Program-made: the position numbers and the translations under genes
Shown here: piece by piece, positions 6,403 to 58,758 of the stretch
How positions within the stretch are numbered: the stretch's first letter is position 1
How the letters are laid out: each line of letters begins with the position of its first letter
Assembly (NCBI GenBank): GCA_028864975.1
Contig: JAGWLG010000003.1
Coordinates: forward strand, 32,001 to 96,000
Direction of reading: 5' to 3'
DNA length: 64,000 nt
Source of the DNA: Thermoplasmata archaeon
Lineage (GTDB): Archaea > Thermoplasmatota > Thermoplasmata > Lutacidiplasmatales > UBA184
The notes under the pieces: generated by a model
Seen by the model: the letters and a program-made list of their open reading frames with translations, nothing else
Database searches by the model: none
Told to the model about the DNA's origin: nothing

Positions 6403-9400
6403 ATGGGCGAAGGGCCGAGGGTGCGAGGCGCGACACCGGGCCTCCCCCTCGTCGGAAGACGGGAGGAGAGGGAACGGCTCACGGAGGCCCTGAGCTCGGC
6501 GAAGGAAGGTCTGGGGGGAGTTCTGGCCGTCGGGGGCCCTGCCGGGATTGGGAAGACCCGGCTACTGCGCTGGATGGAAGGGGAGGCGAGCCGGCTCGGT
6601 TTCGAGGTTCTCTGGGGGTACGGCATGCAGGAGTCGCCCGTGCCGCTGTTCCCCCTGGACCAGATGTTCCAGCGAGGAGGGAACGACCGGGCCCTGCCGC
6701 TTGAGGGAAGCTCGAGGAGCCCTCCCGCGGAGGCGGAACCTCTCCCCCTTGCGGCCCCTTTGGCGTTCTCGGCATCGCCGGCCGACCTGGCCTGGGGGGC
6801 GGCCACATGGGTGGGGCTCGCCGCGGTCGGTGCGGGGGGTACGGCACGACCCCACGACGACCCTTCGGCCGAGCCCTACACGAGCCGCGTGCTCCGCTAC
6901 TTGGAACGCCTCCAACGGGAAAGCCCGCAGCGACCCATGCTGCTGCTCCTGGACGACATGCAGTGGGCCGATGCGGAGACCCTCGTCGCCTTCCAGTTCC
7001 TGGGACGCAGCCTGAGGAAGCTCTCGGTCCTGCTCGTGGCGGCCTACCGCGATGACGAGGCGGCTCCGCCGGGGACCGACGGGGTCGCCCTGGTGGACGT
7101 GCTGGACCGGCTGGAGCGCGAGGGCCATCTGCGCCCCCTGGCCTTGAAGGGGCTCACGTTCTCGGAAGGGCGGAAGCTTGTCGAGGACCTCGTCGGGAGA
7201 CCGCTCGCGGACTCGCAACGGGGGGCCCTGCAGCTCCTGATGCGCCGTTCCAACGGCAATCCCTACTTCCTGCTGGAGATGGTACGTTCGCTCCAATCGG
7301 AAGGCCGGGTGCGGGTCCAAGGGCCCAAGGCGCTTCTCCGCCTCCCCGCCACGACGGACGAGGACGCCGCGGGGACGCCACGCCCGGACAGCGTTCCCCC
7401 CGCGATCGCGAGGCTCCTCCGCTCCCGTCTCGCCTCCGAGCGGCCGGAGCTCCGGGAGGTCATCGATGCGGCGGCCGTCCTGGGTTCGGAGTTCGAGGTC
7501 GCGCCGCTCGCTCATGGTCTTGGGACGAGCCGCGAGTCGGTGGGCACGGTTCTCCTCCAGCTCCATCGCGCCGGGCGCCTCGTGCTGCAGCGACCCGGCG
7601 ACCCCGATAGGTACGCGTTCCAGCACGCTCTGCTCTGGGAGGTGAGCCGTGACGAAGTTCCCTCGGACCGGGCACGCGCGCTCTCCCGCGCGTACGCTGA
7701 CTGGTGGGCGCAGTTCCGCAGCCGTGAGCTCGAGACCATCGCCCGGCTCTACCACGCCGCGGGGGAGCGGACGCCCGGGCTCCCTTGGATCGAGCGGGCG
7801 CTGCGACGTTCGTTCGACGCGGGGACGATGGAGACGACACGTCGGCTCCTCCGTTGGGCCCAGGACCTCTTTCGTGGGGATCCCCAGGGGACCGACGGGT
7901 ACGCTCGGCTCGTCCTCGCGACCGTCCGCCAGCTCTACTTCCGTGGCTCCCTCTGGCAGTGCAGCGACCTCCTCAAGGGCGTGCTCGCCACCGAGCTCTC
8001 GGGCGAGCTTCGCCTCTGGGCCGAGCGATACCTCTCCGAGGCCATCCAGACGACCGACTTCCACGAGGCCCGACGTATCTTGGAGGAGCTCCAGGAAGCT
8101 CAGCTCCGGTCCCCGGAACGCTTCTCCCGTGAGCTCGAGGCCGAGGTCCGGCTCGTGGAAGCGAGCCTCCTCTACCATGAGGACCGCCTGGAGGAAGCCT
8201 CGGCGGCCGCCGAAGCGGCGCTCGAGCGGTTGGGGACCCGGGGAGATGCCTTCCACCGCGCCAAGGCCCTGGAGCACCTCGCGAAGGCCGACATCTACCG
8301 CGGCCGCTACGCGGAAGGGCAGCGACGGCTCGACCAGGCGATCACGCTCGCGGCCGAGTCGGCGGTGCCGCAGTTGCGGATCCGTCTCGCCGGGACCCAG
8401 GGGTCGTTCTTCATGCGGGAGGGGCGGCTCGTGGAGGCGCAGAACGCTTTCGAGCTTCAAGTGGCCCAAGCCCGCGTGCTGGGCCATCTGCCATCCCTCG
8501 TGCAGGCGCTCAACAGCCTCTCCCACGTCCTGGAGAACCGGGCCGACTGGGATGGGGCCTGGAAGGCCGCGGAGGAGGCCCGGCAGCTCGCCGAGCGGCT
8601 CGGCCTCACCCGAGCGGGGGTGGAGGCCCGGGCGAGCCAGGCCGTCGTGCTCGTCGAGATGGGGCGGTGGAGCGAGGCCCTGCCCCGTCTCTCGGACGTC
8701 CGGGACCGAGCGAGCCAGGTCGGCGTCCCCCAGTACGTCACGATCGCGGACCTCCTCGCGCTCGAGGCCCGCGGTGCTCTGGGTGAGGCCAAGGGAGCGT
8801 TGCAGGAGCTCGCGGCCCGAGAGCCCTCGGTCGACCTGACGCTCCCCGACAACCGTGCCCTTTTCCTTCGGATCCGAGGGTTCCTGAGGGTCCAAGTGGG
8901 GGACCGCGAGGGCTCGGAGGAGGACCTCAAGGAAGCTCTCGAGATCTCGGAGCGGGTCCCCCTCAGGATCTCGAGGGCGGGCACGCTCGACGTGATGGTC
9001 CAATGGCAGAGCCGGTTCGGCGATGCGAGGTCCCTGGTGGAGGCACGCGAAAGGGCGGACCGTGCCTTCGCCGAGATCGGGAGCCGCAGGGTCGACCGTT
9101 TCAGCGCCGCCGGCGGGCCACCGCCCGGCCGACACCCGCTCACGCGGCCCGGCCCTTGGGGGGCCCGTGCACGAACGCGAGCGGAGGCTCCGCCCACTCC
9201 CACGCTTTCGACCGCGGCCCCGCTATCTCACCGGATCCTGCAACACCTGGCCGGTCAGGGGGCATGGGCCGGGGCGATCGAGCATGCCCCCCGGGTCCCG
9301 CCGTCGATCACCCAGGAGGGGTTCGGCCAAGCGCTGGGAGTGTCCCAGGGCAGCTTCGCGAAGGCCTTGGTCCGCCTGGAGGAGCGAGGGCTCGTACGCC

Positions 9401-10084: not shown

Positions 10085-13000
10085 ATGATCCTCGCCCTGG
10101 GACTGGCGCTCCTTCCCCTTCTCGGCCAACCGCTCTTCCCTGCCGCTCAGTCCCCGCCTGCGGAGGTGGCCCATGACCTGCCCACGGTAGGGTCGGACCC
10201 ACCCTCCGCTAGGGCGGCAGCGCAGGGGTCCACGGTTCCGTCCCTCCCGAGCGGCCCAGGGTCCGAGGTGGGGCCAGGGAACGGTACGCAGCGCAACCTC
10301 GCCCCCGGAGGGAACATGGGGGGAGAAGGTCGCGGGACCTCCCCGCTCGTTCCGGGAGCGACCCCGATCTCGGCGAAGGCCCCTCCCGCCCGGTCTTCTC
10401 CGAAGGCGGGGACCGTGCGAGGCCCGCTGACCGTGCCGGACGGGGCCTCGCTCCTCGCCCAGGCCGAGAGCTCTCTGGGCGGGGGCGCAGGCCCGGCCCA
10501 AGGTCAGACCCTCTCCTGCGAGCCCGTCCACGTCGGAGGGAGCGCAGCCTGCTCCTCCTCCCGAGCCGTCCTCTCCCCCAAGCTCCCCGACGGCGCGAGC
10601 ACCCCCTCCTGGACCGAGACCGTGGTGCCGCCTCAGCGCAGCGGCGCGGCGATGGTGTACGACGCGGCCGACGGTTACGTCCTGCTCTACGGCGGGTCGA
10701 ACGCCCAGTCCTCGACCTTGACCGACACCTGGAAGTTCCTGGGCGGGGTCTGGACCCCCCTGTCCCCCTCGACCTACCCCTCTGCGAGGACGGAGGAGAG
10801 CATGACCTATGACAGTGTGGACGGGTACGTCCTGCTGTTCGGGGGGCTCTACGGGAGCTCGACCTACCTCGGGGATACGTGGAAGTTCGTGGGAGGCAGC
10901 TGGACGCAGTTGTGCTCGAGCTGCACCATCACCGCGAGGGAGGGAGCGGCGATGGCGAACGACACGGCCGATGGCTATGTCGTGCTCTTTGGGGGATACA
11001 ACGGGGGATACCTCGCGGACACCTGGAAGTTCACTGGGGTTTCCTGGACGGCGCTCTCGCCACCGACCTCGCCCCCGGCCCGGGCGTACGCCGCCATCAC
11101 CTACGATGAGGGCGACAAGTACGTGGTCGCGTACGGAGGGTACGGCCCAAGTCTCCTCGGTGACACCTGGGAGTTCTTCGGGGGTTCCTGGACGGAGATC
11201 TGCAGCGGCCTGACCTGCCCGCTCACGGCGCGCGCCGCTCCCGGCATGGCGTACGATGAGGTCGATCGCCATGTGGTACTGTTCGGGGGCTCACGGGGAG
11301 GCGCGATCTCCGAGACCTGGACGTATGCGGCGGGGACCTGGACCCAGATCTCTCCTGCGACACCGCCCCCGCCCCGGTACCAGATGGGAGCCGCCTACGA
11401 CGCCCAGGACGGCTACGTCCTGCTGTTCGCTGGTGGGGGTCCCCCGGGCTACTTGGGGGACACTTGGACGTTCGCCTCCGGGAGCTGGACGACGCTCCCG
11501 GCCGAGAGTTCCCCTTCGCAGCGCCAGGACGCGAGCTTGACGTACGACGCGGCGGACGGGTACGTCCTGCTCTTCGGGGGGTACACCCGCGTGGACGGCA
11601 TGGGAGGATACAACTTCGTTCTGAGCGACACCTGGAAGTTCGTCGCCGGGGGATGGACCGAGCTCTACCCCACGAGCTGGCCGGCGGGGCGTTGGGGCGC
11701 CGCCATGGCGTACGATGCGGCGGATGGATACGTGGTCCTGTACGGGGGTTACAACAGCAGCGGCCTCGGAATGTACTACGATGACACCTGGAAGTACCTC
11801 GCGGGATCCTGGACCCAGCTCTGCCTAGGCTGCGGACCCCGTGACGAGTACAGCTCGTTCACGTTCGATACCATCGACAACTACCTGGTGGCGTTCGGTG
11901 GCACCACGGGGGGACCCCTCCAGGGGACCTGGAAGTTCTCGGGGGGTGTGTGGAGCACGCTCGGCCCTGCATCCTCCCCTACAGCCCGCTGGGGGGCGGC
12001 GATGGCCTACGACCCCGTGGACCACTACGTCCTCCTTTTCGGAGGGTACGATGGCACCACCTACGACGGTGACACCTGGAAGTTCCTCGGTGGGCAGTGG
12101 ACCTCGCTCGGGCCTTCCCCGGTCCCCTCCGCGCGTCAAGGAGCGAGCATGGTCGGCGATCCGGCCGATGAGTACGTGGTGCTCTTCGGGGGGACGACAG
12201 GCGCGGGACCTCTCAGCGACACCTGGAAGTGGGCCGGGAACGCCTGGACCGCCTGGTCGCCCTCCACCTCCCCGCCTCCGCGGTTCAACGGCGCGATCGC
12301 CGACGATGTGGCGGACGGGTACGTCGTACTCTTCTCGGGGGACGACGGGACGACCCTGGGTGACACGTGGGAGCTCACCCTCCCGCCGCCCACCGTCTCG
12401 GCGCCTACGCCCAGCCAGGCCGCGGCGGACGTGGGCCAGACCTTCTCCTTCAGCGCGACAGCGAACGGCGGGACGGGGACCTACCCCACCTACACGTGGA
12501 CCCAATCCTCGGTGAACCTTGGCTGCACGCTCGTTAGCGCGCCCTCCATATCATGCACGCCCACCGTCGTCGGCACCTCCTACACCGTCTCGGTCTCCGT
12601 GACCGACTCCGCCGGACGCAGCTCGAGCGTTGCGACCTCGGCCGCTTACACCGTGGACGCCGACCCGACAGTGAGCGTTCCGACAGGAAGCCCCTCCTCG
12701 GGGGGGATCGACAGCGGCGAGACCGTCACCTTCAGCGCCACCTCCACCCCCGGATCGGGCGGGGACACCTATGTCTGGAACAATCTGCCTACGGGGTGTC
12801 TTTCCTCGAGCACGCTCTCGCTGCCCTGCGATCCCGGCACCATGGCCGCGAACGCCACGTTCCTAGTCTCCGTCACGATCAAGGACTCGAACGGCTTCTC
12901 CGTCACGGGGGGGCAGCTCAGCTACCTCGTCCACCCGGCCCCTTCGCCGAGGGTCCCCCTGGCCTCTCCTGGGAGCGGGGGCGTGGACGATGGACAGACG

Positions 13001-48279: not shown

Positions 48280-49509
48280 ATGCGGATCGCGTTCTTCAGC
48301 GAGACCTTTCTCCCCGTGCACGACGGCGTGGGCCACGTGCTCGAGGACCTAGGCACTTCTCTCGTTCGGCGGGGAAACGAGGTCACGCTCTACACGACCC
48401 GGCGGCCCGGGCAGCCCCGCGAAGAGCTCTGGCCGGGGGGGATGCGCGTCGTTCGCTGCCGCTCTTTCCCCCTCCCGCACTACCCTCAATACCGGTTCGC
48501 GACCTTTCCCTACCTCCTGGCGCTCGCCCCGGGGTTCGCGCGCCGCACGGACATCGTACACGTCCACACCCCTTTCGCGATGGGAGTGACAGGCCTCCTC
48601 GCCTCCCGACGCGACCATCTTCCCATCGTCGGGACCTTCCACACGGACTTCCGGGGCATGCAAGGGAGCTTCCCGCAGAACCTCGGGATCCGGGTCTTCT
48701 TCCCGCTCGGGGGGTTCTTCAGCGAAGGGATCTACTTCCGTTGCGATACGACGACGGCCCCGACGCCGGAAGCGCTGAGGACGTTGCGCGAGCGGTTCAC
48801 CAAGCCCCCGCACTGCGACCTCGCGGTCGTGCCGAACGGCATCGACATCGTTCGTTTCCGACCGGGGTTAGGTTCGCCCGACTGGTCGTCCCGCCTCCGG
48901 TCGGAGGGGCGACCCCTGGTGACCTTCCTGGGGCGCCTCACGGCCGACAAGGGGGTCCACCGGTTCCTCGATGCCCTTCGGGAGATCCCGGAGGACCTCT
49001 CCTTCCAGGGCGTGGTGGGTGGTTCAGGGGTTGAGGAGCCCGAGGTCCGTCGCAGGATCGAGAGCGAGCGCGGTCTCCGGGGCCGCGTGGTCGCCGTCGG
49101 GTTCGTGAAGGACGACGAGAAGCCTGCCCTCCTCGCCCAGAGCCGGGTGTTCGTGCTTCCCTCCCTCGCGGACACCTCGTCGGTGTCGACCCTGGAGGCG
49201 ATGGCGTCGGGGTGCGCGTGCGTGGTCACCGACCGCGGGGGACCCCGGGAGCTCGTCATGGACGGACGGAACGCGCTCCTCGCGGACCCGACCGACCCGA
49301 CGGCGATCCGCGGGGCCGTGGAACGGCTCCTCCGGGACCCCGAGCGCGCTCGCTGGCTCGGGAGCAACGCCGTGGAGTATGTCCGCGCTCACGCCTCGGT
49401 CGAGCACATGGCCGAGCAGTACCTCGAGATCTACGAGCGGTGCCTGGGACGCGGGAGCTCAGCGCAAGCACGACCTGGGACTCCGGTGCTTACGCGTGGC
49501 ATACCGTGA
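48280..49509 (+). CDS. Glycosyltransferase family 4 (GT-B)
   Basis: RIAFFSETFLP..DGV, VHVHTPF, GRLT.DKG, VFVLPS.ADT.S...LEAMASG. Confidence 0.9.
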   Translation: MRIAFFSETFLPVHDGVGHVLEDLGTSLVRRGNEVTLYTTRRPGQPREELWPGGMRVVRCRSFPLPHYPQYRFATFPYLLALAPGFARRTDIVHVHTPFAMGVTGLLASRRDHLPIVGTFHTDFRGMQGSFPQNLGIRVFFPLGGFFSEGIYFRCDTTTAPTPEALRTLRERFTKPPHCDLAVVPNGIDIVRFRPGLGSPDWSSRLRSEGRPLVTFLGRLTADKGVHRFLDALREIPEDLSFQGVVGGSGVEEPEVRRRIESERGLRGRVVAVGFVKDDEKPALLAQSRVFVLPSLADTSSVSTLEAMASGCACVVTDRGGPRELVMDGRNALLADPTDPTAIRGAVERLLRDPERARWLGSNAVEYVRAHASVEHMAEQYLEIYERCLGRGSSAQARPGTPVLTRGIP

Positions 49510-49868
49510 TCCCTGCGCACTACTCGGCCGACGTGTTCCTCTCCGGCTTCGCGTACATGGTCCCTGAGGGGGGCCTCCCGGCGGGGACCCGTGTGACGTG
49601 GCAGGCGCACTTCTCCACGAGCGAGAATTGTCTCTCGGTGAATTGGAAGTGGGCGGCGGCCGTCTGCACCAGTTCCGGGGAGAATGCCCACATCGGTGTG
49701 AAGCCGGTGGACGACAATCAGCTCAGCCTGTACAAGAACAGCGACCACGCCGGCACCCCCGAGTACGAGAAGGCCTACCTCACCCGGGGAGCGAGGGGGG
49801 GTGGCGGGTCGAACTACACAGGGTCCTACAGCGGTACCTTGGGTATCCGGGGAGGGAGCTGCCCGTAG
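49467..49868 (+). pseudogene. Probable C-terminal remnant of a secreted protein overlapping the glycosyltransferase end
   Basis: Protein-like frame STTWDSGAYAWHTVIP...VNWKWAAAV...GVKPVDDN...NSDHAGTPE...GARGGGGSNYTGSYSG with no signal peptide or convincing own start. Confidence 0.45.
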
Positions 49869-50080
49869 GTTAGGGTCGGCGCCCCTCCCCGCGCCGTCGA
49901 GGCGCTTCGGACCGCTGGGCCCGGCGTTGGGGGCCAGCATGGGATTCCAGACACTCGGGCGAGTCGCTAGACCTCGTCGGCAAGAAAGAGGCCCATGATG
50001 GCCCGGACCTAGGAAGTATATCCGATGCTCAGCGATCGACCGACTCGCCGGCTACCGGGCGTTGCGAGGAGGAACCGAAG

Positions 50081-51109
50081 ATGCCGACCCAGACGAATCG
50101 GAGATGGCTCATTGCGAAACCCCTAGAGGGGAAGCTTTCGCAGGCCAACTTCCGCTGGATGGAGTCCACCGTTCCCTCGGTGGCCGACGGTCAGTTCCTG
50201 GTCCACAATCGGTGGCTCTCTGTCGACCCGACCCAGGTCCTCGTCTTCAACAGCGGGGACCCTCCCGGGAGTGCCGTCCCCATCGGGGAGGCCCCTTGGT
50301 CGCTGGCGGTGTCCGAGGTTGTCGAGTCCCGCCACCCGGCTTTCTCGCGAGGAGACATCGTGCACGGTCAGATGGCCTGGGAGGACTACACCCTCACAGA
50401 TGGGACAGGATTCAACCCTGCTTTCCCGGTGCCGGCGGGGATCCCGCTCGACTGGGCGGCCGGAGCTCTGGGGCTCACAGGACTCGTGGCGTACTTCGGC
50501 CTCCACGAGGTGGCCCGGCCAAAGCCTGGAGAAACCTTCGTCATCTCCGGCGCGGCGGGAGGGGTCGGATCGATCGCGTCCCAGTTGGCCAAGATCCACG
50601 GGCTTCGGGTCATCGGTATCGCCGGAAGTCCGGCCAAGTGTGATTGGCTTGTTCGGGAGGCCGGTGTCGACGCCGCCATCAACTATCACCAAGAGGATGT
50701 CGGCAAGCGGCTGACCGAGCTCTGTCCTCAGGGCATCGACATCTTCTTCGACACCGTGGGTGGGCCAACCCTCGAGCTCGCGCTGCATCGACTGCGAACG
50801 CGCGGTCGCGTGGTCCTTTGCGGGATAACCTCGCAGTACCTCGCGGATCCTCCCGCGCCAGGTCCGGCGAACTTGGTCCAGCTCATCATGGTCAACGGGC
50901 GTATGGAGGGATTCCTGGGAAGGGACTTCATCCCACGGCGGTCCGAAGCGTTCGACGCCATGCTGCCGCTCCTTCGATCGGGACGCCTGAAGTCCAAGGA
51001 GGATGTGCTGGTGGGGCTGCGAGAGGCGCCGAAAGCTCTCGCACGTCTTCTCTCGGGGGAGAACGTCGGGAAGCAGCTCGTGCGTATGGACGAACCCCCC
51101 GGGAGTTGA
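50081..51109 (+). CDS. NADP-dependent alkenal/enone oxidoreductase (PTGR/CurA-like MDR)
   Basis: WLSVDP, LGLTGLVAYFGL, ISGAAGGVGS, GIAGS..KC, GRVVLCG, GENVGK. Confidence 0.92.
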   Translation: MPTQTNRRWLIAKPLEGKLSQANFRWMESTVPSVADGQFLVHNRWLSVDPTQVLVFNSGDPPGSAVPIGEAPWSLAVSEVVESRHPAFSRGDIVHGQMAWEDYTLTDGTGFNPAFPVPAGIPLDWAAGALGLTGLVAYFGLHEVARPKPGETFVISGAAGGVGSIASQLAKIHGLRVIGIAGSPAKCDWLVREAGVDAAINYHQEDVGKRLTELCPQGIDIFFDTVGGPTLELALHRLRTRGRVVLCGITSQYLADPPAPGPANLVQLIMVNGRMEGFLGRDFIPRRSEAFDAMLPLLRSGRLKSKEDVLVGLREAPKALARLLSGENVGKQLVRMDEPPGS

Positions 51110-51216
51110 GGCCCTCGGTCGCCCCGGAGCTGGCGGTCGGCGATCTCCCTCTGGGCTACTGAGGCCGGAGGGAGGGGTCTCGAGGGCCGCGTTGGTCCGT
51201 GTCGAACGTCGCTCGA

Positions 51217-51305
51217 GGAGGACTCGGCCGCCTCGACCCCCTCCTCCGCCCCCCGACGACCACATAGAGACTCACCAGGTCCTCCACGGGGGCCCTGCGG
51301 CGAAG
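51217..51305 (-). repeat. Decayed copy of an internal segment of the DUF835 gene (matches 54463-54555)
   Basis: 30-nt perfect repeat GGAGGACTCGGCCGCCTCGACCCCCTCCTC (51217-51246 = 54463-54492) plus a second near-identical block (51272-51305 vs 54522-54555). Confidence 0.8.
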
Positions 51306-51338
51306 GGCGTCCCGGGAGCGGACGAGTTGCCGGCGCTT

Positions 51339-53951
51339 TCAACCCTGGGGCGGAAACCCCGGAGGCGGGCCGGGTTGGACTGGCCAAGGCGGGGGCGTTG
51401 GCGGTCGTCTCCTTCGCTGCACGAGAACGACCGCGGGTACGGAGATCGCGAGTGCGATGACCACGACGATCAGCACCAGGCTCATCGTGGTGCTGAGCCC
51501 GAGCAGGCTGAAGCCGGGGGCCTGCTGCGTGTCGCAGGGCGGCTGGGCGGGGCCGACGACCGTGACGGAAGTGTTCGACCACGCGTGCGTGCTGCGCGTG
51601 TCCGTTACCTCCAAGCTCACCGAGTAGGAGCCCACGGAGCCGAACGAGTGGGAGACATTTCGCCCGGTCTGGGGAGAGGAGCCATCGCCGAAGGTCCACG
51701 AGAAGGCGTAGGCCGGAGCACCGCCCCTCGCAGAACCCTCGAAAGAGTCGACGAACGGACTGAGAGCGCCCCCATTGCATGACCCCGTCAGGCTCCCGGA
51801 CGTGGCACTCGCGTTCCCGAAGGCGACGAGCTGAGGCGGCTGGCCTCCCGAGCTCGCGGCGACCGTGATCGCGACCGAGTTGCTCCCCGCGACGGTCGAC
51901 GACGCGTCGGTCGCCCAAACGCGGTAAGTGTAAGTGCCCGGGTGGGCGAAGGACAGGGCCGAGCCGCCGCAGCCAATTAGGGATGTGTTGGTCCCATTGA
52001 GGGACCACGCGCAGGTGTACGGGGAGACCCCGCCGGAGACGGTAGGGGTCAGGGTCACGGATTGCCCCACGGTGGCCGAGACGGAGGAGGGCGTCAGCCC
52101 CACCGAGAGCGGCGTGCTGGGGGTGGTGTAATTGACCCACAGACTGCCGTTGGTGCTGACCGAGACGTTCCCCCACGAGTTCGTGAGGATCTGGGACCGG
52201 CCCGCCGGCATCTGGAAGGTCGTCTGCGAGAAGGTCTCTCCGGTGCAGGGGAGGGCGTGCACGGGGTATCTCCCGCCCAAGAAGGTGGCAACGCTGCCCG
52301 TTGCCTGGGTCGTCCCGTTGAAGCTCACCGGGGAGCATGCTGCGGGAGAGACCTGGAAGGAGATCGTGTAATGTGCGGGCGGAGGGACCCAGGTGTAGGA
52401 GGCGGTGAGCGTCCCGTTCCCCCAGACCCCGACCGTCGTCGGGTTGCCCCCTAGGCTGGGGAGGGTCAGGGAGCCCGTAGCGGTCCACTTGGAGAAGGAA
52501 TATCCCAGGCAAGTCAGAGCGTTGGCTGAGTAGTTGCCGTCGGTGAACTGGACCCGTGCCCCATTGTTCTCGTTGAGCCCCCCGAAGATGACCGGGCCGC
52601 AGGCAGGGGGAGAGATCACGAACGTCACATTCCCCGCGTGCAGGGTCTTGCCGCTCCACGTGTAGTAGGCGGTCAGGCTCCCCGTCCCGGTGACGTTCGC
52701 GAAACCGCCGGCCGAGGTCGGCCTCTGGACCGTGACCCCACCGGTGGAGTTCCATTGCTGGAAGGAGAAGTCGGTGCAGGGGTTCGCGACGATGGAGTAG
52801 GTCCCGGCGACATAGGAGCCGGTGGAGCCGCTCCCTTGGGACGTACCGTTGAAGGCGATGGGGCAGGTGGCAGGATGGACGAAGAAGGAGATGGTCGGAG
52901 GGGATGTCGTCAAGTTCCCGAAGACGTATCCTGAGGCAAGTTGGGCCGTGTCTCCCTGGAAGTAGTCCAGGTCGACGTTCGAGGTCCCACTGATCCCAGG
53001 TACGGTACCCGTGGCCGAGTGCTGCCAGAAAGTCCAAGTGGGCCAGATCCCGGTGTTGGGGCTGCTCACGCCCCAGTTGGCGATCCAGAGGGGCCAGGTC
53101 GTGAGGTAGGGGTCGAGACAGCCTGTGACCTCGCTGACCCCGGTGTAGAGGACAGGGGTGACCCCGGTATACCCGTCATGGGCGGCGATGTACTGCTGAA
53201 CCGTGGACATCCACATGTCGACCCACGTCGACATGGCGTTGTTGCTGATGGTCCCGCATCCTTCCTCCAGATCAAGGGCGGGGTAGAGGTAGCCGGAGGA
53301 GAAGTACGGCGCGGCGATGGACAAGTAGTGGTTGGCTTCCGTCGTGGCATTGGTCGCGATACAACCGACGGAGCTGTCCGTCGCAGGGCAGGCGAAGTCG
53401 TATCCCGCCATCCAGAGACCCGCGGCTTTTCCGGCGGGCATGTAGGTCGTGAAGGTAGGGTCGACAAAGCTCGCCCCCTGCGTGGCCTTGGTGAAGTCGA
53501 ACTTGTATCCCGCGCTCAGAACATTCGTCCAGTTCGTCACGGTCTCGTAGTGGGACGTATCGACCCCGTTCACTTCTGCTACGAACGGGCGAGAAGGGTT
53601 CGGGCCCCCGGCCGGGAAACCCGACGGCGTCGCGGTGCCCCCCGAGAAGCGTGTCGGACCTTGGACGGAACCGAGGAGCAGAAGGACAAGGAGCGCAGCC
53701 ACCCAGATGAGGCGTCCCCCGGGGCGATGCGCAGAGAGACCGAGCCGCGTCCCAAGCGACGATCCTCGAGCGGAAGGCCCGGGGCCCTCGGGAGTCCCCC
53801 TCCAAGGGATGGACCGACGGAACGCTCCCGGGGCAAGTTGGCCGGACCCACCTGGGGCGCCGGGCCCGAGGGGGAGTGCGGGCAGGGGGCGCAGCACCGT
53901 AGCGACGAGCGCGAACGCGGCCGAAGGCCGTGCCGGAGGCCGCCGCGACAT
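51339..53951 (-). CDS. Membrane-anchored GH25 muramidase (lysozyme) with beta-repeat/PKD stalk
   Basis: GVDTSHY, KATQG, GYDF, PALDLEE, LWIANW, FWQHS..G.VPGI...VDLD at about 52955-53575; PKD WTFGDGS; TM plus RRRR. Exact start uncertain. Confidence 0.85.
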   Translation of the reverse strand: MSRRPPARPSAAFALVATVLRPLPALPLGPGAPGGSGQLAPGAFRRSIPWRGTPEGPGPSARGSSLGTRLGLSAHRPGGRLIWVAALLVLLLLGSVQGPTRFSGGTATPSGFPAGGPNPSRPFVAEVNGVDTSHYETVTNWTNVLSAGYKFDFTKATQGASFVDPTFTTYMPAGKAAGLWMAGYDFACPATDSSVGCIATNATTEANHYLSIAAPYFSSGYLYPALDLEEGCGTISNNAMSTWVDMWMSTVQQYIAAHDGYTGVTPVLYTGVSEVTGCLDPYLTTWPLWIANWGVSSPNTGIWPTWTFWQHSATGTVPGISGTSNVDLDYFQGDTAQLASGYVFGNLTTSPPTISFFVHPATCPIAFNGTSQGSGSTGSYVAGTYSIVANPCTDFSFQQWNSTGGVTVQRPTSAGGFANVTGTGSLTAYYTWSGKTLHAGNVTFVISPPACGPVIFGGLNENNGARVQFTDGNYSANALTCLGYSFSKWTATGSLTLPSLGGNPTTVGVWGNGTLTASYTWVPPPAHYTISFQVSPAACSPVSFNGTTQATGSVATFLGGRYPVHALPCTGETFSQTTFQMPAGRSQILTNSWGNVSVSTNGSLWVNYTTPSTPLSVGLTPSSVSATVGQSVTLTPTVSGGVSPYTCAWSLNGTNTSLIGCGGSALSFAHPGTYTYRVWATDASSTVAGSNSVAITVAASSGGQPPQLVAFGNASATSGSLTGSCNGGALSPFVDSFEGSARGGAPAYAFSWTFGDGSSPQTGRNVSHSFGSVGSYSVSLEVTDTRSTHAWSNTSVTVVGPAQPPCDTQQAPGFSLLGLSTTMSLVLIVVVIALAISVPAVVLVQRRRRPPTPPPWPVQPGPPPGFPPQG

Positions 53952-54207
53952 CCTGAGCCCGATACCCGTCCCCCGCTATTTGGCCCCTTTCACCGACGAC
54001 CGGACCGGACCCTGGGCCGGACCCCCCCTTTCTGTCCCGGCACACGCGACCGCGCGTGCCGCTCGAGCACGACCCGCCCACGACCCCCCGGCCTGCGTCT
54101 CGATGAACGGCTCACCGATCGCGAGAACCAAGTCCGCTCCCACCTCGAGGTTGCGGGGTGACGGGGCGAGAGCAAGCTTGGCGGTCTCGGTGGGGTCCGC
54201 GGTTCCG

Positions 54208-55053
54208 CTACGTGGCCCGCACGACGTGGTTAAAGTCCCGTTCCAGCGTCGCGACCTGCGAGCGGCTGAACGCGCCGGGATCGACCGACAGCACGAGCAG
54301 CCCGTGGTGCTGCTGGACCTTGCTGTGCAGCCAGTAGACGAACTTCGTCGTGAGGTCGAAGGAGTTCTGCGTGTTGAGGAACTCGACCGCCTCGAGGTAG
54401 ACGAGCGCGGGCTCGGGCGTTCCGTTGAGGAAGTTGTCGACGCGCCCCGTGAGCTGCGTCGGGGAGGACTCGGCCGCCTCGACCCCCTCCTCGGTGGTCC
54501 CTTCGACACCCAGGTGGAGGATCACCAGGTCCTCGACAGGGGCCATGCGACGCAGTTCGTTCGGAAGTCTGGTGATGGCGAGCCCTCTTCCTACCCGGGG
54601 GAGGAGTTCGCGGAGGAACGAGCGCGCGACCTGGCGGGTCTCCTCCAGGAAGAGGTAGTTGTACCCTGGGACCGCCGGGGGGAAAGCGGGCGCGCTCGAG
54701 GAGCCCCGCGGCTGGACGCGCACGAGGCTCTCGACGGGGATGCCGACCGGGGTCGAGAGCAGGGTCTTCCGCTTGAGGCGCACTTCCTCGTCGAGGTGCC
54801 CGAGCCGGCTCTCGACGAAGACCCGGATCTCGGAAGGGGTGTGGCCCCTCGCGACCAGACGGGTCACGAAGTGGAGCGCGTCGCGGGCCCCATCGCCCCA
54901 GCCTCGGGCGTAGGAGGTCGGTCCGTCCCCCCTGGAGGAGGAAGTGTCCGAGTCGTCCAGGGCTTGGGGCTCCGTGTCGGTGCCCTCCTCTTCGTTCGCT
55001 CGTCGAGGGGCGGGGGACGCGGCCGGGGGAAGGCCTCCCGTTCGGCCGGTCAC
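54208..55053 (-). CDS. DUF835 domain protein
   Basis: GLAITR.P, VYLEAVEFL...NSF....KF..WL, LVLSVDP.AF...VA.LE. Confidence 0.72.
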   Translation of the reverse strand: MTGRTGGLPPAASPAPRRANEEEGTDTEPQALDDSDTSSSRGDGPTSYARGWGDGARDALHFVTRLVARGHTPSEIRVFVESRLGHLDEEVRLKRKTLLSTPVGIPVESLVRVQPRGSSSAPAFPPAVPGYNYLFLEETRQVARSFLRELLPRVGRGLAITRLPNELRRMAPVEDLVILHLGVEGTTEEGVEAAESSPTQLTGRVDNFLNGTPEPALVYLEAVEFLNTQNSFDLTTKFVYWLHSKVQQHHGLLVLSVDPGAFSRSQVATLERDFNHVVRAT

Positions 55054-58655: not shown

Positions 58656-58758
58656 TGGACTGGGCGAGATGCTCAGGAGGGAGGGGGGTCCTCTCCTCCG
58701 TTTGAACTCGCGGCCTCTACCTTGCCAAGGTAGCGATCTTCCACTGATCTACCAGCCC
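58656..58758 (-). tRNA. tRNA-Ala (GGC) with a 31-nt intron at position 59/60 (intron 58670-58700)
   Basis: Exon 1 (58758-58701) GGGCTGG...CTACC-TTGGCAA-GGTAG...GCGAG-TTCAAA; exon 2 (58669-58656) TCTCGCCCAGTCCA; G3:U70 pair; complete BHB at the junctions. Confidence 0.92.

Follow-up and report, generated by a model that had tools for sequence, protein, structure and literature searches.

The GH25 muramidase of the archaeon Aciduliprofundum boonei kills Bacillaceae, and both antibacterial and nutritive roles were proposed for it (Metcalf et al., 2014, eLife, PMC4241558). Since then, a survey has placed peptidoglycan hydrolases in about 5% of archaeal genomes, with the Thermoplasmatota prominent among them; it required a Pfam cell-wall-binding domain beside the catalytic domain (Strock et al., 2025, PLoS Biol, PMC12352652). 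The subject of this article is another archaeal gene with a glycoside hydrolase family 25 (GH25) domain, found in a 64,000-nucleotide stretch of DNA, called the window in what follows, from a metagenome-assembled genome (MAG) of a Thermoplasmata archaeon (Lutacidiplasmatales; UBA184; GenBank assembly GCA_028864975.1, contig JAGWLG010000003.1, positions 32,001 to 96,000). The product is probably a type-I membrane glycoprotein that carries a competent GH25 domain on an anchored stalk of five domains, and the digestion of bacterial wall at the cell surface is probably its main role. An earlier note, made from the letters of the DNA alone, had described a surface-tethered GH25 lysozyme and had cited the A. 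boonei enzyme as a precedent; that precedent is real (PMC4241558). A search of the literature found no paper on a membrane-anchored GH25 in Thermoplasmata.

The Pfam GH25 profile (PF01183) matches residues 130–320 from end to end (profile positions 1–180 of 180; cut-off 27 bits, E 6.7e-28; scores in Table 1). The closest solved relative of this head is Cellosyl from Streptomyces coelicolor (1JFX), whose D9, D98, E100 and D198 align to D131, D227, E229 and D327, and the ALDLEE motif and flanking aspartates to which the earlier note had drawn attention are thus intact. Across 30 aligned homologs D227 and E229 never vary, and D131 and D327 are kept in at least 90%; a set of 12 archaeal GH25 domains shows no variation at the first Asp or in the DxE pair. 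An AlphaFold2 (AF2) model of residues 120–345 has a predicted template modelling score (pTM) of 0.92 and a high predicted local distance difference test (pLDDT) value, given in Table 1. When this model was used as the query in Foldseek, the top 22 matches were all GH25 structures, 1JFX aligning with template modelling (TM) scores of 0.79/0.82 and a root-mean-square deviation (rmsd) of 2.3 Å. Within the archaeal GH25 set C232 and C278 are almost invariant, and a subset that includes the window copy has an extra Cys-bracketed loop at residues 188–197. Judged by alignment and model, the head looks catalytically competent.

A Kyte-Doolittle scan of the protein finds hydrophobic segments at residues 78–97 and at about 814–844. 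The first of these, described earlier as signal-like and also present in the GH25 paralogs of this genome, may serve as a signal peptide or as a signal anchor. Behind the catalytic domain, a Ser/Thr/Pro-rich linker (residues ~341–348) joins the head to a stalk that begins with three repeats of about 88 residues (residues ~350–613), which contain the Cys pairs 363/392, 451/481 and 539/569; these pairs are invariant or almost so in 13 homologs. The Cys-paired beta repeats of the earlier note are borne out by AF2, which models them as three all-beta sandwiches (mean pLDDT 91.7). The PKD units of that note were upheld in part: one, at residues 740–796, matches PF18911 and PF00801 with 47.9 and 39.3 bits and is the sole PKD unit above threshold, whereas the unit at residues 619–697 stays below it (Ig_3 19.2 bits; K319L-like PKD 13.6 bits). 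The second hydrophobic segment is followed, as had been read from the sequence at first, by four arginines (residues 846–849).

The ectodomain has 18 N-x-S/T sequons, compared with 8.6 ± 2.5 in shuffled sequences, of which none in 2000 reached 18. Charged residues make up only 6% of it, a low value that would be expected for surface proteins exposed to acid. Display of the head on a stalk, as proposed in the earlier note, fits the layout of hydrophobic ends, beta stalk and anchors found in most proteins of the clade, insofar as the layout can be read from sequence and models. A PGF tripeptide stands at residues 812–814, and 21 residues follow the RRRR cluster. Anchoring of the PGF-CTERM/archaeosortase type was considered and rejected: the tripeptide is not kept in homologs or paralogs, and there was no NCBIfam sorting-signal match at E ≤ 1. 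No match to the archaeosortase family PF09721 was found in the genome, which is an estimated 89.6% complete, and a Haloferax control genome was likewise without a match.

There are three in-frame start candidates for this open reading frame (ORF), ATG at 53951, GTG at 53897 and GTG at 53702, the last of which is used in the public gene call (P0002, 787 residues). Codons 1–83 (53703–53951) have G+C (GC) contents of 0.77, 0.76 and 0.73 at the three codon positions, a flat profile that resembles the upstream spacer, while an AAATAG box before the ATG at 53951 would fit the position of an archaeal TATA box for a leaderless mRNA. Which of the three is the start codon is uncertain; the choice is without effect on the mature protein.

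Table 1. Features of the GH25 gene, its predicted product and its surroundings (window coordinates; aa, amino acid residues of the 870-residue reading; nt, nucleotides)
Feature	Position	Strand	Details
GH25 surface protein gene (P0001)	51339..53951	(-)	longest ORF, uninterrupted, 870 aa; stop codon included
AAATAG, TATA-like box	53976..53981	(-)	27-28 nt 5' of ATG 53951; read by eye only
N-terminal hydrophobic segment	53661..53708 (aa 82-97)	(-)	Kyte-Doolittle peak 2.1; ends ...GSVQG before P
GH25 muramidase domain	52935..53576 (aa ~126-339)	(-)	Pfam 98.7 bits; 1JFX 87.6 bits; AF2 pLDDT 95.3
Asp corresponding to Cellosyl D9 (D131)	53559..53561	(-)	alignment
DxE catalytic pair, D227-L-E229, corresponding to Cellosyl D98/E100	53265..53273	(-)	alignment
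Asp corresponding to Cellosyl D198 (D327)	52971..52973	(-)	alignment
Three Cys-paired beta-sandwich repeats	52107..52907 (aa 349-615)	(-)	orthologous to stalks of propeller proteins P0003/P0004/P0005
Ig-like/PKD-like domain	51852..52106 (aa ~616-700)	(-)	under Pfam thresholds; homologous part of P0003 matches K319L-like PKD, E 1.4e-4
PKD domain	51552..51809 (Pfam match aa 740-796)	(-)	Pfam above threshold
C-terminal transmembrane segment	51420..51512 (aa ~814-844)	(-)	Kyte-Doolittle peak 3.24
RRRR stop-transfer cluster (aa 846-849) and 21-aa Pro-rich cytoplasmic tail (aa 850-870)	51342..51416	(-)	
Segment of ~4.77 kb: GH25 gene, DUF835 fragment, CurA-like reductase gene	49446..54211		absent in three same-genus genomes
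Intact DUF835 gene, upstream of GH25	54208..55053	(-)	last gene of the block syntenic with same-genus genomes
Decayed partial DUF835 copy	51213..51310		direct repeat of 54459-54560; just downstream of the GH25 stop

The archaeal host named in the earlier note is confirmed by the surroundings of the gene. The proteins of the window include an archaeal L3 (TIGR03626) and an archaeal HMG-CoA synthase (TIGR00748) with thiolase and DUF35 partners, and archaeal marker genes lie on both sides of the GH25 gene. The contig is 150 kb long with a GC content of 0.682, in an assembly of 3.6 Mb with a GC content of 0.674. Both flanks of the gene are collinear with three genomes of the same genus, and nucleotide identity amounts to 83% on the side of the mevalonate operon and DUF835 gene and to 75% on that of the glycosyltransferase (range 75–83%). 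Relatives of the GH25 domain in named genomes are almost all MAGs labelled "Thermoplasmata archaeon", and the isolate names of the high-GC relatives suggest mine-drainage sites. The earlier note had allowed that the contig might prove chimeric or bacterial; this was rejected on the archaeal markers, the synteny of the flanks and the composition. A prophage or endolysin origin was also considered and rejected: identity to phage GH25 proteins does not exceed 33% even in the best match, and the neighbourhood of the gene is free of phage genes.

The Cys-paired repeats are absent from all related GH25 loci examined. From the repeats through the Ig-like and PKD domains to the anchor, a length of about 460 residues, the window protein is 55–62% identical to P0003, P0004 and P0005 (74% in the repeat part), all of which have beta-propellers as heads, and its repeats are 55% identical to those of P0006, a protein of a relative with a sedolisin head. 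The similarity starts at residue 349, a few residues past the ...GYVFG motif that closes the GH25 domain in all paralogs. In the stalk-coding DNA, the window gene and the P0003 gene are 74% identical. P0003 is encoded in assembly GCA_027314165.1, the MAG "clean3262", whose GH25 loci cluster with those of same-genus genomes in the trees. Its stalk finds its best match in the present genome in the window GH25 gene itself, on contig C97. The site here that is syntenic with P0003 (contig C98:48311-50236, flanked by a small ORF and a DEAD helicase and close to the end of its contig) has no such gene. Most simply, these comparisons would be explained by the joining of a GH25 head, at the linker, to the stalk half of a P0003 ortholog. 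With a recent transfer of the head in mind, GC content at third codon positions (GC3) was compared: it is 0.82 in the head and 0.87 in the stalk, with 0.88–0.92 in housekeeping genes; values of 0.79–0.82 are found in other surface genes too.

The hybrid gene lies in a variable slot, bounded by the DUF835 gene on one side and by a gene for a GT4 glycosyltransferase on the other. Besides the GH25 gene, the segment that fills this slot contains a CurA-like NADPH reductase gene at 50081–51109 and the DUF835 fragment; three same-genus genomes (L062, L063 and L064) have about 1.2 kb with an aldo-keto reductase gene in the same place instead. The fragment and its counterpart in the intact DUF835 gene agree in 33 of the 34 nt of a core and in 79% over 97 nt overall (E 5e-20), and this direct repeat is a predicted recombination scar. 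A DUF835 gene beside related GH25 genes was sought as the source of the fragment, and none was found.

The stalk is shared by at least 16 ORFs of this genome (L037–L051 and the window gene). At the C-terminus most of these also have a transmembrane segment and a basic cluster, with a Pro-rich tail of 20–90 residues in the cytoplasm; the conservation of such tails would suggest a cytoplasmic partner. The heads on the genome's stalk proteins include Kelch, NHL and YNCE propellers and a GH57 glucanase (L047). In Pfam the paralogous repeats of several of these proteins go by the name Flg_new_2 (PF18998, a divergent InlB B-repeat; 26–62 bits), which has no match in the window GH25 protein at E ≤ 1. 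Fold searches with the stalk repeats returned CnaB-type pilin domains, with Z up to 7.4, and the InlB B-repeat (2y5p), with Z of 5.4; only generic stalk modules were found, all at Z < 8, and no murein-binding module.

A further protein of this genome, P0194 (1089 residues; contig C64, L071:3364-6630, reverse strand), combines three LysM domains with NlpC/P60 / Amidase_6, an N-terminal hydrophobic segment, long poly-Gly linkers and a C-terminal transmembrane anchor; its N-terminal part has sub-threshold SLT_3/phage-lysozyme matches (E ~0.1). By its domains P0194 is a putative second, peptide-cutting type of murein hydrolase of this archaeon. On contig C15, a gene placed divergently beside a GH25 paralog (L004:2-1489, reverse strand) encodes a secreted protein with no Pfam match, whose motifs FMPWVCQFC... 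and ...DWEPD recur in the middle of P0194. Comparisons of the L004 protein with GH18 chitinases and with Bacillus subtilis YdhD gave E values of 0.2–0.4, and a GH18-like reading is unproven.

Four GH25 genes, on three contigs, are present in this genome, and all encode long proteins with an N-terminal hydrophobic segment. Among 40 relatives the domain was found in all three same-genus genomes, in five of five from one sister genus and in one of three from another, and in all four genomes of a second family of the order; it occurs in 4 of the 20 genera among the relatives, and it was not found in 10 other searched families of the class. Across the Thermoplasmatota, 15 of 401 genomes carry GH25, as a single copy outside this family, and the present genome has the most copies. 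In a sister-genus genome (G005, contig C11), two GH25 genes (8114-8683 and 11817-12386) lie 3.7 kb apart on the same strand, suggesting local duplication as one source of paralogs.

Trees were made from the best 150 of about 29,700 GH25 representatives together with the archaeal loci; these are quick trees with moderate support. All four paralogs belong to a single 31-row clade, with Shimodaira-Hasegawa-like approximate likelihood ratio test (SH-aLRT) values of 90–99, and this clade contains only rows labelled Thermoplasmata and unlabelled proteins of the same architecture. GH25 proteins of seven other Thermoplasmatota families fall outside it, amid unnamed sequences. Among them are those of a DHVE2 MAG (L028), of two family f14 genomes and of a complete genome that is probably that of A. 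boonei; the common ancestor of the 31-row clade and the DHVE2 and f14 group spans 65 of 100 rows. From this position of the DHVE2 and other-family proteins it would follow that the present GH25 family represents an acquisition separate from that of Aciduliprofundum/DHVE2, and that it was then duplicated. The earlier note had looked to phylogeny for the donor. A Thermoplasmata clade of its own was recovered, but no bacterial donor can be named: the contigs of the nearest non-archaeal representatives have no taxonomy, and a scan of named genomes gave almost only Thermoplasmata.

Within the clade, no branch is longer than that of the window copy (0.48), whose placement is unstable, beside P0010/L018 with FastTree and basal with IQ-TREE. 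The GH25 heads closest to it are only 55–59% identical, and all are in Thermoplasmata MAGs. A C-terminal hydrophobic peak resembling a transmembrane segment is present in at least 17 of 22 clade proteins, in most cases with a basic cluster and a Pro-rich tail behind it. Sequons are many and charged residues few in most of the 22, and no cell-wall-binding domain was found above threshold in the clade proteins. Two sister-genus loci, L008 and L009, form a GH25 group outside the core clade together with P0022, P0189 and P0164, as proteins of 1,057–1,258 residues. This group adjoins unnamed proteins, one of which has autotransporter-type repeats and is probably bacterial, and it hints at a further transfer, in either direction.

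Taken together, these features suggest the following mode of action. Export by the Sec pathway would put the GH25 head outside the cell, and the ectodomain would be N-glycosylated. The transmembrane helix, with its basic stop-transfer cluster and Pro-rich cytoplasmic tail, would anchor a stalk of five beta-sandwich domains, and a stalk of that number of domains might hold the head some 15–20 nm off the membrane. The head would then cut the bonds between N-acetylmuramic acid and N-acetylglucosamine (MurNAc-GlcNAc) in whatever peptidoglycan comes within reach, presumably that of intact Gram-positive neighbours or of wall debris. It would probably belong to a group of tethered hydrolases that digest wall material at the cell surface, whether for food or in antagonism, and tethering would keep both the enzyme and its products at the producer's cell. 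Killing of touching bacteria would be a possible consequence and not a separate mechanism, since the same chemistry would lyse Gram-positive cells on contact. Since the producer itself has no murein, the display would be harmless to it, and no immunity protein would be needed.

Several points weigh against this interpretation. Signal cleavage in the GH25 protein is doubtful, as a proline comes after the ...VQG site, and if the N-terminal segment stayed uncleaved the head would be kept near the membrane and not at the tip of the stalk. No cell-wall-binding domain (LysM, SH3, PG_binding or similar) was found in the protein with Pfam at E ≤ 1, and its long branch may reflect a relaxed constraint on the window copy. 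A tethered enzyme cannot gain access to Gram-negative murein. Searches of the genome, which is 89.6% complete, gave no MurQ, NagA, Amidase_2 or Amidase_3, and a complete catabolic route for murein sugars is not evident; of the peptidoglycan scavenging raised in the earlier note, the use of amino sugars is left without support. Murein-sugar catabolism had been considered as an argument for scavenging and was set aside: the search for these four, in a genome of that completeness, only fails to support it.

Predation or competition, also raised in the earlier note, would follow from the rival view, the main reading of that note, that the protein is a dedicated contact-dependent weapon against Gram-positive competitors or prey, with nutrition secondary or irrelevant. 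The A. boonei enzyme is bactericidal and is induced in co-culture (PMC4241558), and a patchy distribution, such as that in 15 of 401 genomes and 4 of 20 genera, has been read as a sign of an arms race for archaeal peptidoglycan hydrolases (PMC12352652). Multiple GH25 paralogs, the LysM-NlpC/P60 protein as a second type of hydrolase and the strain-specific insertion of the window copy would agree with such a use. However, an enzyme on a tether reaches only a very short way and is without a device for delivery, the protein has no cell-wall-binding domain, and the age of the clade and its inheritance within genera (3/3 and 5/5) do not resemble the rapid turnover of weapons. The stalk bears ordinary polymer-degrading heads as well, GH57 and sedolisin, and foraging enzymes on tethers would explain this no less well than a weapon; with the products kept at the cell, GH57 and protease heads on the same stalk fit foraging on bacterial wall material. 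A dedicated weapon is thus a possibility that we consider rather unlikely. Still less probable is that the anchored form is a precursor, whose head or whole ectodomain would be shed by proteolysis as a soluble lysozyme like the enzymes of A. boonei and Halogranum. The Ser/Thr/Pro-rich linker between head and stalk and the surface sedolisin proteases of the lineage would allow for it, and the archaeal peptidoglycan hydrolases known to be active are soluble (PMC12352652; PMC4241558). Yet the stalks of the clade members differ while the C-terminal anchor is kept in no fewer than 17 of 22, which argues that tethering itself is selected, and a stalk of five domains would be wasteful for a shed enzyme.

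Two remaining explanations concern the substrate and the source of the gene. GH25-fold proteins without lysozyme activity exist, one of which, Rv2525c, is among the fold matches; the sister stalks carry propellers of a binding type, and the window copy is the most divergent of its clade. One might then suppose that the fold acts on or binds something other than murein, such as the cell's own envelope glycan or a fungal or chitin-like polymer, or that it is the non-catalytic head of an adhesin. This seems quite improbable, as the four active-site acids are kept both in the window copy and across the clade. Lysozyme (muramidase) activity is the only one on record for GH25, and Thermoplasmata are not known to make murein or pseudomurein. 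As for the source, the MAG consists of 124 contigs with an estimated 1.9% contamination, and the gene is in a segment missing from sister genomes, so a bacterial or phage fragment could in principle have been mis-binned or mis-assembled. That is extremely unlikely given the length of the contig and its resemblance in composition to the rest of the genome, the archaeal markers and syntenic flanks on both sides, the 74% DNA identity of the stalk half to a gene of a same-genus genome, the low identity to phage GH25 and the occurrence of all the closest heads in Thermoplasmata MAGs. Surface digestion of bacterial wall by a tethered lysozyme therefore remains the preferred reading.

A broader proposal is offered more tentatively, as possible but short of likely: that these Thermoplasmata are surface grazers on bacteria, equipped with an anchored murein kit whose stalks are interchangeable and whose heads are swapped, and that this gene is an example caught in the act. 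The kit would comprise the four GH25 lysozymes, the LysM-NlpC/P60 multi-enzyme and GH18-like hydrolases. A lysozyme head would have taken the place of the beta-propeller on an orthologous stalk, giving a hybrid at a new locus marked by the scar. As a separate matter, a weak Rfam tRNA match at 58703–58758 on the reverse strand of the window scores 30.7 bits, just over the gathering score, and has no ARAGORN call.

Archaeal lysozymes bear on the question of how archaea compete with bacteria or feed on them, and few cases have been tested. Archaeal GH25 lysozymes were already known; what is new here is the swap of a head on a stalk together with the insertion scar. An archaeon without murein can wear a lysozyme permanently on its surface. 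The exchange of heads between the stalks of surface proteins would be a simple route to new functions at the cell surface, and with so few charged residues in their ectodomains these enzymes may also prove useful in practice as acid-stable muramidases.

The closest described system is the A. boonei enzyme, like the window protein a bacterial-type lysozyme in a Thermoplasmatota archaeon that has no murein, from a gene that was taken from bacteria and then inherited vertically (PMC4241558). The window gene differs from it in belonging to a separate lineage, the 31-row clade, in being one of four copies per genome, in its long beta-sandwich stalk and C-terminal membrane anchor, and in coming from high-GC MAGs. 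With the hydrolases surveyed by Strock et al., the family shares a murein-cleaving domain in archaea, a patchy distribution and predicted export (PMC12352652). The enzymes tested in that study were soluble M23 peptidases, and its modular definition does not cover the window protein, which is without a cell-wall-binding domain (PMC12352652). PF01183 is on the catalytic list of the survey, and PKD accessions are absent from the available supplements (PMC12352652). As far as those supplements go, the family would for these reasons not have been counted, and a published domain-based survey would have passed over a family that is old and has multiple copies in one Thermoplasmata lineage. In its head the protein resembles Cellosyl, with the same active-site acids, a TM score of about 0.8 and an rmsd of 2.3 Å. 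Cellosyl is a single-domain secreted bacterial enzyme, whereas the archaeal head has two N-glycosylation sequons, the clade-conserved C232/C278 and the extra loop at residues 188–197. In its overall design, a head, a PKD/Ig-like stalk and a C-terminal transmembrane segment, the protein resembles the archaeal YVTN-propeller/PKD surface proteins, and the tandem beta-sandwich spacers of Gram-positive CnaB and B-repeat stalks hold a head off the membrane in the same way. The fold matches to CnaB and the InlB B-repeat are weak (Z < 8) and point to a common arrangement only; in contrast to both kinds of stalk protein, the head here is a lysozyme and the repeats contain a conserved Cys pair.

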